Shown: piece after piece, positions 11,300-60,121 of the stretch
Layout: the number at the start of each line of letters is the position of its first letter
Numbering within the stretch: position 1 is the stretch's first letter
Assembly (NCBI GenBank): GCA_964016885.1
Contig: OZ024743.1
Span: 73,222,001 to 73,286,000, forward strand
Source of the DNA: Eledone cirrhosa
Lineage: Eukaryota
Direction: 5' to 3'
Length of the DNA stretch: 64,000 bases
The notes under the pieces: generated by a model
Seen by the model: only the letters and a program-made list of their open reading frames with translations
The model's database searches: none
Told to the model about the DNA's origin: nothing
Position numbers and translations under genes: made by a program

Positions 11300-14076
11300 A
11301 ATTGAAGACTAAAATCCAAAGAGGGCTCGATAAGGAAAATATATATCAAATATATAAGAACCGTAGAGCAAATATTTATTAAAATAACAGATTAAAGTTT
11401 AAGCAAAGAATCGCTGCTCTCACCCTTAACGGGATCTTCTGAAACTAACAAAGTCAATCTGTAAACGCAGAACTGGATATTTCAAAAAACGTTGCAACCG
11501 GAGGAAGACAGGAAGACGATACTTTGGTTCGTGGAAACGTTCCCTGGCAAAGAACGGGAAAAAACGAATAATACGTCATTAACAGGAGCGGTGAAAAACA
11601 ATTACGCGCAAAGACAGAACCACGTTTATGGTATAAAAGAGGTCGTAGACTAATGTTCTCTTAGGTGGTGCATAGAGACGTTCTCTGGCAATGAACGAAA
11701 AAACGAAGATAATACGTCATATGTGCAGCGTAGAGAACAATTACACGCAAAGACAAAACCACGTAAATGGTATAGCAGAAGTTGTAGACTAAAATTCTAA
11801 CTAGGAGACCAAATGAATCTCCGCTACAGGGTTAAGAACAAAGTAAATAAATACAATACAGAAGTAATAGAAACAAATAAATACATACACGCAAACAGAT
11901 ACGTACATACACAAGCATCAGCAAAACCTTACCATAGGTATACAAAACCACGCACATATAAATATGTGTGTGTATGTATGCTTGTGTACAAATAAATAAA
12001 TAATTATATAAACGTATATAAGTAAATAAATACGTATATAACCAGCGCACACGCATACCTTCAAATAAATACACGAATGTTCGGAGACGTAAGTCACCTA
12101 AAACAAGAAGTACACATATACACACACCCACCATACGTACGAACCTACATACTCACGCAGACGCAAAACTCCCGTATACACATAGCCAAACCCTAAATGC
12201 CAGAATATGTAAAAATTATACGCCATAACAGTCAAATATACATACGAGAAGGTATACATACCTTCACAAAACATACGGGTAATATATACTTACCTATGCA
12301 AATAAGTAAAGGAATAAACAAAACATATACTTAGCTCCCACATCAAGACGTAAAATATCCACGTATAGATCGTGCTAACCGTTAGGGTATAACGTGGGGC
12401 TGTAATACAGGAAAGTTTTGTGCAATTTATGTTTACAAGCCGAAATTGCCTCAGATTTGTTGTTTAAGATGTGGTCTGTGGCGTAGAGTATTTCCAGGGC
12501 CTCAGCGGCGCAGAGGTCACATGGTCTTTTATTTCCGTTATACGATCTAGCCCTAGCTAGGATCTCCCAGTGTAACTTATATTGGGTGTGGTTGTCTTTT
12601 AGACTCCAGATATAAGCTGAAAGTGACGTCATATTCCTTCTTAGAGGGTAACGAAAAGAATGGGTATGCATGTAAAGACGCTGCTTGAAACTATTGGCGG
12701 TTAACCATATGTAGGCCCTACGGGACGTGGGTGTTACAACCTTACATTTGTAGACAATGTTACTAGAGAGGCATTTCCCGGATAGGGGGCAATCAGCCCG
12801 ATTCCTACAATTACAGTTAGTACTAACTACAGGGTTGCACGTGTTCCTACGGCTAGGTAGTTTAGCTAAATTTGAAGCTGTGATGTTATGTGCAAGGTTA
12901 GGAGTCGTAGAGTAAGAAATTTTAATAGTATTTCTATTAAAAATTTTACTATACTTATGTGTAGGGGGAAAATGCTTCGTAATAAGGGAAAGAAAGATCT
13001 TAGCTAATGGTGTGGCCACCTCCATATTATATGGTGGGTTAAACCAACAAATGCGACGGGATCTATTTCTTCTAGGTCTATTTTCGTACTCTGTATATGC
13101 TACCGTATCGACAAATCCACTTCGAGCAAGAGCTTCATTGTAATAAGTGGAATGGTCGTTGAAAATGCGCTCGTTGGTGGAAAGACGGGAAAGTCTCAAC
13201 GAAACGTTTTTTACCAGGTTCTTGGTTATGCTGGCAGGATGGTTGGAATGCTTACTTATGTAATTAAGCGTATCATTCGGCTTTCTATACGGGTAATACA
13301 ACCCATTCAATAAATTGAGGGTAACGTCGAGGTAATTAACGACCGAGAGATTGGCCTCAACCTGTATAGAGAGGTTGAAGCCTTTAAAGAAGGCTGTGAG
13401 TTCTTTTCTGAACCTGTCGCAAGCACGAGGTCCGCACTTAGTCATGGTCAAAAGACCATCGTCACGGTACAAACCACCGCCCGCGTTGGGGAATTCGTCC
13501 TTGATAGAGAAAAGAAGGAAAAGGCCAATAAGATCAGTAACCTCCGCAGAGTCACTGGCGCCCATACTCACGTCGAATGGGGTACTATTGGATTTTTTAA
13601 TCCAAATAGAGTCGTCGAAATTAATCACCGACTTTCGGGCATTAAGGATGACAATTAAGTCTACAACTTCTGCTATACCATTTACGTGGTTTTGTCTTTG
13701 CGTGCTATTGTTCTCCACGCTCCACATATGACTTATTATCTTCGTTTTTTCGTTCATTGCCAGAGAACGTCTCTATGCACCACCTAAGAGAACATTAGTC
13801 TACGACCTCTTTTATACCATAAACGTGGTTCTGTCTTTGCGCGTAATTGTTTTTCACCGCTCCTATTAATGACGTATTATTCGTTTTTTTCCGTTCTTTG
13901 CCAGCGAACGTTACCACGAACCAAAGTATCGTCTTCCTGTCTTCCTCCGGTTGCAACGTTTTTTGAAATATCCAGTTCTGCGTTTACAGATTGACTTTGT
14001 TAGTTTCAGAAGATCCCGTTAAGGGTGGAAGCAGCGATTCTTTGCTTAAACTTTAATCTGTTATTTTAATAAATAT
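11300..14076 (-). mobile_element. 5'-truncated Penelope-like retroelement (family A, Naiad-like) with inverted partial pLTR
   Basis: RT+GIY-YIG ORF, about 1.07 kb 3' UTR ending in (ATT)n at 11300. 13658-14076 is an inverted copy of about 11372-11790 ending in (TA)n. Confidence 0.93.
12375..13657 (-). pseudogene. PLE reverse transcriptase (C-terminal half) plus GIY-YIG endonuclease, 5'-truncated
   Basis: FDVSMGASDSAEVTDLIGLFLL, GLYRDDGL, VNYLDVTLNL, HSNHP, WFNPPY, CxCx5Cx5C linker, IVYK..AYIW(G)LT..FKQRLYMH, CDLC..E, LNNKSE..CKH. The first ~33 aa of the tracked ORF come from the inverted arm. YIG is changed to YIW. Confidence 0.93.
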
Positions 14077-14089
14077 ATATATATATATT

Positions 14090-14222
14090 AGAAAGTGAGG
14101 TGTTTTTTACAAAATGAAAAATAACCGAGGTGTCCTACACGAGTGAAAGTATAAAGAAAAAGAGATGAAATCGAAAATGCAACTGGAGTTGCATTTTCGA
14201 TTTCATCTCTTTTTCTTTATAT
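14090..14222 (-). mobile_element. Family H mini-insert: short hairpin plus tail in (TA)n
   Basis: Perfect ~30-bp inverted arms around CAACTGGAGTTG. Homologous to 22117-22212. Confidence 0.75.
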
Positions 14223-14239
14223 ATATATATATATATAAT

Positions 14240-14661
14240 ATAATATAAGATCAAAAGATGGTTAAAAGAGATCAAAGTGTTTTATTATGCGCATTTCAAA
14301 AACAAATATCATGATGGGATAATATCTGCGTTCTCATCAGATAAAATAGGGAGACATGATATGAAGCTTAAAAAACACTTGTGAATAGTCAAGTTTTAAA
14401 TCAACATATGTTGATTTAAAACATCACTGATCACAAGTGTTTTTTAAGCTTCATATCATGTCTTCCTATTTTATCTGATGAGAACGCAGATATCTTCCCA
14501 TCATGATATTTGTTTTTGAAATGCGCATAATAAAATACTTTGAACTCTTTTAACCATCTTTTCATCTTATATTATTTATACGCCAGTCCTACAAACTGTA
14601 GAGTGCTACTTATCCGATATTTGCATTGCTTTATTGTGCTACAATAATACTCACCTCCTAC
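14240..14661 (+). mobile_element. Palindromic hammerhead element plus ~85-nt tail in (TA)n
   Basis: Arms 14240-14407 and 14408-14575 centred on TCAACATATGTTGA. Tail 14576-14661. Confidence 0.85.
14467..14537 (+). ncRNA. Type I hammerhead ribozyme, intact core (mirror copy on - strand at about 14280-14348)
   Basis: TATTTTAT-CTGATGA-GAACGCAGATATC[loop]GATATTTGTTTTT-GAAA-TGCGCA-TA-ATAAAATA. Palindromic stem III AUGCGCAU, AUA cleavage. Confidence 0.92.
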
Positions 14662-14677
14662 ATATATATATATATAG

Positions 14678-58247: not shown

Positions 58248-58329
58248 CTATTGACTACAAACACACACATATATATATATGAGACTGTGTGTGTATGTAT
58301 GCATATATGTATATATATATATATGTCAG

Positions 58330-58932
58330 GTCACCAGTTGGTGCTACTGGTAACATGTATCCCAGTACAACCTGTCACATGGTCGGGTCGTTGGCGACTA
58401 AACTGGCAACCCCACCAAGTTTTCTTGGTGAGGAGGGTGACTTTGGACATCCTGCAGGACTAAAAACAAAACCTGTCAAAGGGCAAAGGAACTCTTAAGA
58501 GTCAATCGCCATCCAAAATCACCGGGAGAGATGACCCCTTAGACTTTGTCAAGGCAGAATTCTAGGAGAAGGAAAACTCTGATATAACACCTGCAACCCT
58601 GATGGTATCCAATGATGTTGACTTGTTCTCCTTTTTGGTAAATATCATCTTGGTCAAGAGAGTGGGACTGGCTTTGTGCAGTGCCTTTGCTCAATATAAA
58701 AGCTTCACGGCACAGGCATTGCATTATATCTGGAGATCTCGCTGCACTTGTCGTCACATGGTACCATGGGCCTAGCACTATGTGACTATAATTGTCACAA
58801 GTGTAGTGTTTGTACCAGAGTTTTCAAGTCGCTAGCTGGACTAAAAAGTCACACTCGTTCAGCGCATCGCTAGGGGTTCTCCTACATGGATATAAAGTAG
58901 TGGCCGTACTCGAAAACGAGTTGGCAGCCACC
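58330..58932 (+). mobile_element. Bipartite non-autonomous RTE-derived element
   Basis: UTR-like 5' part fused to C2H2 terminus CSVCTRVFKSLAGLKSHTRSAHR* and 3' end ..ACGAGTTGGCAGCCACC before (AT)n. Confidence 0.65.
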
Positions 58933-59594
58933 ATATATATATATATATACATATATAACAGATATATATATGTATATATATGTATAGATCTTCTAGTGTT
59001 CTTATATATTTGATATATATTTATCCTTATCGAGCCCTCTTTGGATTTCAGTCTTCACATTTATTATTATTATTACTATATATATATATATATATATATA
59101 TATATATATATACAGTATATATATATATATATATATATATATATATATATATATATATATATATATATATATATACATATATATGTATATATATATATAT
59201 ATATATATATAGGCGTGCCTATGCGCGGAGATGCTAAAGACTAGACTACTGTAGATCTTTAAAGGCAGGAAAAAAAGTTGCCATCGGCTTCTCTGTAGTA
59301 TGTGGAAATTTTACCTCCTATGAGGGTCTTAAAAGCCATTTTATAATAGCATCTCCAGGCATGAGCCCACCGTTCTTTATATTTACTTTATCCCCTTAAT
59401 GCTTCGTAAAAGTCATAGAGAATGGCCACTTATATACTATACATGGATTTATATAAATGTGTGGGCGTGATATAAATCCGTATATCTTGTCTGATGACCC
59501 TGTGATAAACAGGCCTCACTATTCAGCTATGATGAAATAAATACTCACACACACACATATATATATATATATATATATATATATATATATATAT

Positions 59595-59790
59595 ATAGGA
59601 AAAAGTATGACCCCGGTGGCAGAGCTCAAGCCGTTTTGACGGCTATTTCAGTCCAGAAATAGCCGTCGAAACGGCTTGAGCTCTGCCGTCGGGGTCATAC
59701 TTTTTCCTATTTCCCACTCTACTACCCTAAGTATTGAGTACTCTGGTGCGTTATGGTCCATCTGGTTACTTACCACATTTCCTTTGTTAT
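59595..59790 (+). mobile_element. Family B hairpin plus 80-nt tail in (TA)n
   Basis: Arms 59595-59649 and 59656-59710 contain the 3' half of the hammerhead (GAAA-CGGC..GCCG-TC-GGGGT). Confidence 0.85.
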
Positions 59791-60121
59791 ATATATATAT
59801 ATATATATATATATATATTAAAATAACAGATTAAAGTTTAAGCAAAGATTTGCTGCTTAAACTTTAATCTGTTATTTTAATAAATATTGCTCTACGGTTC
59901 TTATATATTTGATATATATTTATCCTTATCGAGCCCTCTTTTGACTTTATTCTTCAGATTTATTATTATTTCTATATATAGGCAAAGTTAACCTCAAATC
60001 CCGCCGAGGTTAACTTAGCCTTTCATCCTTACGGGGTCGATAAAATAAAGTACCAGTAATGTACTGGTGAATTGATGGCCTTGTGCCAAAAGTAGAAACA
60101 ATTATTATTACTATATATATA

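Follow-up and report, generated by a model that had tools for sequence, protein, structure and literature searches.

How does a single insertion of a retroelement come to consist of two head-to-head arms with a tail at one end only? PMC8557442 lists among the tasks still to be solved how tandem and inverted insertions of Penelope-like retroelements (PLEs), and the tail on one side of them, come about. Here, we analyse a stretch of 64,000 nt from Eledone cirrhosa (the window; contig OZ024743.1, positions 73,222,001 to 73,286,000), in which such inserts lie in (TA)n microsatellites. An earlier note on this DNA had named a set of them, and all are present where it placed them. In each, one arm carries the tail, and the other, inverted arm terminates at an internal site. 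One outer end lies at this internal site (I), and the other lies 59-169 nt further on (T). The features of the window are as follows.

11214 to 11285, minus strand: tandem repeats of the final 12-15 nt of the family A T end
11286 to 13655, minus strand: family A long arm, a 5'-truncated PLE with RT thumb, linker, GIY-YIG region and 3' UTR/pLTR; T end at 11286
11325 to 11369, minus strand: GCTC..GAGC hairpin of family A, 3 nt downstream of site I
11372, minus strand: site I of family A, read through inside the tail-bearing arm
13655 to 14076, plus strand: family A inverted arm, 422 nt; I end at 14076, fused to (TA)n
14090 to 14219, unstranded: family H insert, left T arm and right I arm; 59-nt tail
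14237 to 14663, unstranded: family J insert, left I arm and right T arm; hammerhead core (CUGAUGA..GAAA) from 14475
14675 to 14793, minus strand: lone family A arm with T end
14958 to 15058, unstranded: family B insert with non-overlapping arms, an I arm and a T arm that is tail only
21292 to 21762, unstranded: family K insert, left I arm and right T arm; degenerate hammerhead core near 21570
22989 to 23438, unstranded: family N insert, T/I, 169-nt tail; absent from the earlier note
42941 to 44630, minus strand: long arm of family B, carrying a remnant of the GIY-YIG region; outer end at site I
44631 to 44695, plus strand: family B tail-only arm with T end; no overlap with the long arm at 42941 to 44630
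45037 to 45137, unstranded: family M insert, short I arm and T arm
50193 to 50626, unstranded: family G insert, I/T
59595 to 59790, unstranded: short I/T palindrome of family B, with an ACTC..GAGT hairpin at 59716-59739
59811 to 59975, unstranded: family A short palindrome, I/T

In the two family B inserts described earlier as non-overlapping (42941-44695 and 14958-15058), the T arm is tail sequence alone. The ends had been read as fused to (TA)n or (ATT)n; the (ATT)n at 11214-11285 proves to be family A's own end repeats, for which re-initiation or slippage may be the source. At the tail end of the family M insert, ~35 nt of CT-rich sequence separates the end from (TA)n. PLE ORFs elsewhere are flanked by family J ends and by family M ends, and family G is a non-coding tandem unit of ~570 nt. 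Among the apparently symmetric palindromes checked (S1-S5), S3-S5 are inner portions of larger inserts, divided at internal TA runs.

We confirm that the inserts are PLEs, placed head-to-head in (TA)n. As in endonuclease-bearing (EN+) PLEs, a single 708-aa ORF, found at locus L250, contains an RT followed by a C-terminal GIY-YIG endonuclease (by eye, YRDD and then VYKC..YIG), and the family A long arm of the window is 95% identical to it over 432 aa. Pfam detected GIY-YIG in homologue P0116, and gave no match for the family A protein itself or for the ORFs of the window; the matches in our homologue search were unnamed proteins. Partial tandems that form pLTRs are present, as are the inverted 5'-truncated copy and a one-ended tail. 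The family A unit is 3.26 kb long, and the tail ends of 63 of 74 non-tandem A copies pass directly into (TA)n. Motifs and the (TA)n target point to the Hydra clade: family A has RWR, DKT, CNC-X5-C and CDLC..CKH, family B has DKT, CNC-X5-C and CNLC..CKH, and CCHH is absent from both. A hammerhead core with stem II occurs in family J and K ends, and none was found in the scanned ends of families A, B, G, H, M and N. Rfam scans had no hammerhead among the matches listed, only microsatellite-driven miRNA matches. Donor- and acceptor-like words can be seen by eye in the A leader; the joints listed for read run X4, a run of unknown kind, include no intron joint. A genome search with a 60-nt family B query returned no match.

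Mapped across copies, the termini fall at two main ends, I and T, with a minor third end in family A at x ~+33, within a TA-rich stretch of the tail. Both I and T lie in the leader, upstream of the ATG. The earlier note had proposed two fixed sites, one internal and the other at the tail end. The fixed sites and the internal position of I hold. T, however, reads on into leader and ATG; therefore, it is not the RNA end, and both sites are internal.

The two ends are almost always used together. In 1.26 Mb sampled irrespective of content, 52 two-armed inserts had both ends at I or T, and 48 of these were I/T (12/13 in family A, 18/18 in family B, and 18/21 in other families). If each end were chosen independently, I/T could make up at most half, which gives P = 6.5e-11. 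The exceptions are three T/T inserts and one I/I insert. The same association appears among long copies that begin at the ORF start. When the inverted arm ended at T, the far end was I in 12 and T in 1; of the five copies whose inverted arm ended at I, all had T at the far end (P = 0.0007). Among all resolved long copies, 17 of 23 were I/T and none was I/I. The proposal that every insert carries both ends thus needs qualification, since about half or more of copies show a single arm (in the 1.26 Mb sample, ~27 single family A arms ending at I or T, against 15 pairs), and I and T each occur as the sole primed end. This near-strict pairing suggests that both cut DNA strands are likely to start a copy of the same RNA.

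TA targets and a palindromic shape would also fit MITE-like DNA elements, assembly fold-back artefacts, or two independent insertions in one microsatellite, as (TA)n attracts nested insertions. We consider these extremely improbable. The ends are asymmetric in 48 of 52 inserts, the arms range from ~7 nt to >7 kb, the centres differ and lack (TA)n, the ends flank RT-EN ORFs, and alleles are common to both arms. Furthermore, these ends and inverted joints recur in raw Illumina reads of other samples and in independent contigs. At site I of family A (11372), 1435 and 1538 raw reads have loose (TA)n-like ends.

A second arm might instead arise if the first cDNA folded back and copied itself. Such an origin is compatible with the I/T inserts in which the T arm contains the I arm (25/70), the arms end together (14/70), or the I arm contains the T arm (3/70). 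In 27 of the 70, neither arm contains the other (23) or there is no overlap at all (4/70). The long arms of L251 and L264 hold an upstream tail, so that 25 rather than 27 of the 70 exclude fold-back outright, with neither arm holding the sequence of the other; 42941-44695 and 14958-15058 are among these. Fold-back is thus excluded as a general route, might survive for a subset only, and as an explanation of the inserts appears very unlikely.

Polymorphic alleles show that the two arms usually come from one source. Shared alleles numbered 44 against 13 discordant in A long arms (77%, vs 15% when permuted), 31 against 12 in B short inserts (72% vs 12%), and 14 against 11 in B long inserts (56% vs 16%). 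Short A palindromes gave 0 shared and 11 discordant alleles, a result that is biased because these loci were selected by a query with a rare allele; we put the allele found in just one arm of 15 A inserts down to the selecting query. Conversion between arms could also produce shared alleles. Divergence within and between inserts did not differ overall (P = 0.67), and 1367 three-way columns held no alleles discriminating the upstream from the downstream pLTR as source of the inverted arm.

Excluding pairs with an arm <30 nt or without anchors, microhomology of at least 2 nt was found at 18 of 43 centres in family A (118/598 simulated) and 9 of 19 in family B (72/379 simulated). The excess, at 2-4 nt, is small, and blunt or insert-bearing centres are numerous. 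Informative matches for target duplications came to 11 of 70, against 8.7 in shuffles, a comparison in which (TA)n conceals duplications; only L005 and L012 have possible duplications of 11-15 nt. Together, shared variants, mutually non-containing arms and microhomology favour two target-primed cDNAs over fold-back.

The inner ends of the arms are also informative. The 5' ends of T arms cluster at site I, where 16 nt contain six of them and the 85 flanking nt seven (P ~0.01), as expected from collision on one RNA. Both arm types share an upstream stop at x ~-75 in family A and -59 in family B, where 16/52 and 16/58 ends, respectively, fall within 4 nt; this is probably the 5' end of the RNA.

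Two published proposals have to be weighed against these observations. In the first, a single priming event is followed by a change of template from sense to antisense RNA, or by self-priming on an antisense transcript as proposed in PMC3846280, the second fixed end being the end of the antisense template. The same final structure, a single source for both arms and microhomology at the centre would all result. We nevertheless judge this route unlikely, given that I and T each occur as sole primed ends, that both arm types have a common upstream stop, that equivalent sense-strand hairpins follow both sites, and that in vitro no RNA other than the sense strand is needed for both start sites (PMC11167929). 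The other proposal, suggested in the corresponding part of PMC8557442, is that the endonuclease resolves a DNA intermediate, a head-to-head or tandem cDNA that would be integrated after cleavage at I and T. Both sites are UA/TA-rich and resemble the target, and the D. virilis endonuclease is cited in PMC11167929 as requiring the tail for recognition. This route too seems improbable to us: the tail boundaries coincide with the RT start sites found in vitro (PMC11167929), and T arms of 7-25 nt and those that stop at site I are left unexplained.

We therefore return to priming from both cut ends, with one cDNA per site and the two then joined, which we regard as the probable explanation. In it, (TA)n would receive a staggered cut, and its two 3' ends would each prime cDNA on element RNA, one from each fixed site, with the 2-5 nt of UA at each site pairing with the target end. 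Each step of this scheme, including priming from both 3'-OH ends of one break, is an inference. The cDNAs would extend until stalled, until they met the other primer, or until they reached the common stop, and host end-joining would close the centre. To overlap, the arms would need either strand displacement on a single RNA or a further template of the same locus, whether another RNA or a tandem unit. Most I/T inserts do overlap, unlike in classical one-RNA twin priming.

A hairpin next to the sites may set the start points. The pattern RCTC..GAGY occurs within 16 nt 3' of 12 of 14 sites, whereas the background rate is 1.6% of positions, and families differ by A-U/G-C exchange within it; the pattern was set after the sequences had been viewed, and the families are related. 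The family A hairpin (11325-11369) is a predicted RT-positioning signal. Seven metagenome relatives (38-41% identity) had neither twin hairpins on the sense strand nor TA flanks in the stretches examined, so that the hairpin is confirmed in this genome alone. A protein dimer could sit on two hairpins of one read-through RNA, and each event would then have one I and one T. We find it possible, at somewhat less than an even chance, that such two-ended priming is a built-in PLE route. A telomerase-like RT-endonuclease dimer would bind two leader hairpins, tandem copies of one small RNA hairpin, each subunit starting a few bases 5' of its hairpin on one strand of the staggered cut. Each complete event would give I + T, the tail would equal the distance between hairpins, and non-coding units such as G would hitch-hike by keeping both hairpins.

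Our counts reduce the question to precise predictions: each event should have an I and a T, hairpins should come in twos, and both strands should be primed. An existing in vitro system can test these. If correct, this reading would mean that the sister group of telomerase normally inserts by twin priming, which for L1 is an occasional accident. It would also explain a dense source of palindromes in the TA microsatellites of a 3.0-Gb animal genome.

Much of the layout is known. Inserts of EN+ PLEs with an inverted pLTR and a one-sided tail are described in the relevant passages on Pen2a_Av (PMC3846280), in Fig. 2 of PMC8557442, and for D. virilis Penelope (PMC2377424). As here, they have a partial tandem, an inverted 5'-truncated copy, and a tail at one end, also at the start of the ORF unit. 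The tails are 30-40 nt there and 59-169 nt here; in the same passages the tail is called optional, and self-priming or endonuclease resolution is proposed. Counts of end pairing, given here, are absent from the passages concerned in these three papers. The Hydra clade, as treated in section 11 of PMC8557442, shares with our families RWR/DKT, a CxCX5C linker, the lack of CCHH, the CxxC and CxH that surround the endonuclease E and N, and the (TA)n target. Our families depart from it in that no hammerhead was found in A, B or G, although J and K have one, and in the 3.26-kb unit of A.

The nearest experimental system is Poseidon PAc of Anolis in vitro (Frangieh et al. 2024, PMC11167929), in which both strands are nicked and extended, two internal RT start sites bound the tail, and a dimer is predicted. 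Start sites near the ORF start, an AT-rich target and a predicted dimer are common to both systems. PAc belongs to another clade, however, and its sites lie inside the ORF start rather than upstream of the ATG. Its start sites are said to lack homology to the cut DNA and to serve both strands equally, whereas ours end in a 2-5 nt TA-like match. Equal use by both strands does not in itself give strict pairing. PMC11167929 does not propose the joining of two cDNAs or one-of-each pairing. The layout and the two internal RT starts are thus already published; for a joining model, strict pairing or the hairpin we found no precedent in the literature searched (chiefly papers outside subscription). 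The earlier note's reading is partly supported: fixed sites, independently truncated arms of one source and central joining are borne out by the tests above and agree with the in vitro data of PMC11167929. It under-credits prior work, in which inverted pLTRs with a tail on one side, and the pair of internal RT start sites that bound the tail, had both been reported.

L1 twin or dual priming, as set out in the relevant part of PMC2837659, likewise involves priming by both target strands and inverted pieces joined with short microhomology, and here too a single element supplies both of the inverted fragments. The first L1 primer is at the poly(A) end, the second site is variable, and internal deletion is typical. 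We find neither a poly(A) first primer nor the internal deletion, with only 4 of 70 inserts non-overlapping. Unlike in L1, both sites here are internal and fixed, the arms mostly overlap, and the inverted structure is a main outcome.

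All inserts named in the earlier note are present in the window, as self-comparison and reading of the sequence show. Each consists of two inverted arms that join head to head at a centre. In every named insert the left arm lies on the minus strand and the right arm on the plus strand, and thus each outer end is a 3′ end of the element. As the note had proposed, one outer end falls at an internal site (I) and the other at a tail site (T), here called the I/T plan. Its non-overlapping arms at 42941-44695 and 14958-15058 were likewise recovered, with a T arm of tail sequence only. 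The same plan is found in a further window family, N (22989-23438), and probably in a second (47504-48030). Inserts of different families are chained via shared (TA)n tracts, as in A-H-J-A-B at 11286-15058 (e.g., 14217-14237); thus, older insertions provide targets for younger ones. At 30612-33285, an antisense piece of family A lies between an arm of another family, to which it is joined, and an A arm that ends at T; a comparable join of M to A is found at C1 about 200,176,128. These joins may represent either a cross-family template jump or a later insertion with deletion.

Position of the T end on the element sense strand (x; site I = 0, T downstream of I)
Family A: x about +86
Family B: x +80
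Family G: x +120
Family H: x +59
Family J: x +85
Family K: x +95
Family M: x +64
Family N: x +169

The window (contig C4, 73,222,001-73,286,000) comes from a 3.0-Gb genome and is AT-rich and packed with microsatellites. It also carries other repeats:
26849-27196, 34168-35447, 61635-63100: minisatellite arrays (22-bp unit; CA-rich degenerate arrays)
539-1530, 4825-5179, 17385-17593, 35909-36964, 38562-38771, 46553-46724, 50924-51122, 52990-53224, 59994-60122: copies of a short dispersed repeat of tRNA-like size, probably a SINE, which also breaks up PLE copies (locus L243)
5899-6551 (also positions 174463-180838 of the C4 window-plus-downstream block): repeat with near-symmetric ends, which also builds a 514-bp tandem array with inversion

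The inserts are real. The earlier note had raised fold-back assembly artefacts as a possible source of the palindromes, yet raw reads and an independent contig show the ends and the inversion joints. (TA)n-like loose ends occur at I in 1435, 1538, and 2927 raw Illumina reads (three other samples) and at T in 696. Strand inversions make up 13 of the 15 joints listed; one such joint is common to two read sets, and another is found in reads and in the independent contig. These reads are short and reduced-representation, with a single start for many of the joints, and support the family rather than each window locus. As a family, the inserts are not an artefact.

The family A protein is a 708-amino acid RT with a C-terminal GIY-YIG, its frame intact in locus L250. 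It has RWR, DKT, a CxCX5C linker, and CxxC/CxH around nuclease E and N, and lacks CCHH; family B shows the same marks. RWR/DKT-type motifs, CxCX5C, CxxC/CxH, and no CCHH are Hydra clade marks in the available text of PMC8557442. Related ORFs are flanked by J and M ends, and J, K, and N tails reach ORF starts. Hammerhead cores occur in J and K; scans of A, B, and G found none. The G unit, about 570 nt long and non-coding, occurs in tandem, and no ORF link was found for H.

We find that the ends are mostly paired one of each. In six blocks chosen irrespective of content (1.264 Mb in total, the window among them), the 15 two-armed family A inserts comprise 12 I/T, 1 T/T, 0 I/I, and 2 with another end. 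Family B has 24 pairs (18 I/T, 0 T/T, 0 I/I, and 6 with alignment falling short), and G, H, J, K, M, and N together have 27 (18 I/T, 2 T/T, 1 I/I, and 6 not assigned). Among the exceptions in the latter, one T/T has an arm running on into a tandem, and the single I/I is fused to family A. Thus, I/T accounts for 48/52 inserts whose two ends both fall at I or T (P = 6.5e-11 versus a half). In a forward test, far ends were fetched for copies picked by ORF start (38 regions; near ends of 30 matches had been viewed beforehand, and far-end classes were assigned by reading), giving 17 I/T (one resting on a 7-nt arm), 0 I/I, 1 T/T, 3 T with a minor end near +33, 2 with another end, 8 single-armed, and 7 not assigned. 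The end of the inverted arm predicted the far end (P = 0.0007). Inserts with a single arm are frequent, with ends at either I or T. At locus L261, two complete family A units lie in tandem and are accompanied by an inverted arm whose end falls inside the ORF, a non-standard site.

Palindromes could also arise by fold-back. Among 70 I/T inserts of families A and B, the I arm is contained in the T arm in 25, the arms end together in 14, and the T arm is contained in the I arm by way of an upstream unit in 3 (1 of them partly). In 23, each arm has sequence missing from the other, and 4 have no overlap; two of these 27 carry an upstream tail, leaving 25 beyond the reach of fold-back. Polymorphic alleles are common to both arms far above permuted pairs (77, 72, and 56% versus 15, 12, and 16% in three sets); short A palindromes, a biased sample, have no alleles shared between arms. 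Microhomology at the centres, which the earlier note had proposed scoring, is at least 2 nt in 18/43 (A) and 9/19 (B) junctions without inserts, versus about 20% simulated. Inserts were scored at 19/62 (A) and 19/38 (B) junctions, against 25% (A) and 53% (B) of simulated joins. The 5′ ends of the arms concentrate near x −75 in A and −59 in B, in each case at a TTAGT word, which we take to resemble an initiator motif. T-arm 5′ ends accumulate at site I (6, versus 7 in the flanks; P about 0.01). The lengths of the two arms show no correlation in A (P = 0.47) and a correlation in B (P = 0.0007), in which the short copies have the upstream stop in common and the long ones were selected. Target duplications are not readable in (TA)n flanks; loci L005 and L012, in imperfect TA tracts, have possible duplications of 11-15 nt.

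A hairpin, RCTC..GAGY, starts 3-16 nt after 12/14 sites (tandem contexts), versus 1.6% of background positions, a pattern defined post hoc among families that are kin. The stem is ACTC/GAGT at four of the sites and GCTC/GAGC at eight. The pattern is missing at H-I and at N-I, where a stem with a longer loop is visible by eye. Seven distant relatives gave no confirmation of the twin hairpin.

The earlier note took T for the end of the element or RNA tail, which is wrong. In family A copies with an ORF start, the tail continues about 42 nt to the ATG (18/92 distinct tail ends); in B it reads on about 90 nt to the ATG (one copy), and sequence likewise continues past T in J, K, N, and the G tandem. 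Therefore, both I and T are internal sites. In the family A leader, site I is flanked by donor-like and acceptor-like words (L203:1330-1445; window about 11309-11423, minus strand). If this candidate were a retained PLE intron, site I would exist only in unspliced RNA, which would explain intron retention. The family B leader has no clear donor. Tandem repeats of the last 5-30 nt of family A follow T in 5/74 non-tandem ends (window 11214-11285; also L270, L053, L070, and L246), and may reflect repeated re-initiation, recalling telomerase repeat addition, or plain slippage.

The insert layout is an already published architecture of a known class. In the portions of these sources available, a tail is optional on one inverted pLTR (PMC3846280), or often at a single end and attributed to EN resolution (PMC8557442); a partial tandem is bordered by inverted repeats (PMC2377424); and twin priming and dual priming are described for L1 (PMC2837659). 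What is available of bioRxiv 10.64898/2026.07.22.740005 has no bearing on mechanism. Literature searches found no paper on PLEs that states one-of-each pairing, joining of the cDNAs, or twin hairpins. A mechanism in which both 3′ ends of cut (TA)n prime cDNAs at I and T, which are then joined, is well supported and probably correct, though unproven, and comes with an explicit route to testing. In vitro, according to the available text of PMC11167929, PLE RT initiates at a pair of internal sites, one on either side of the tail, and nicking and extension occur on both strands. The internal I and T described here agree with those two start sites.
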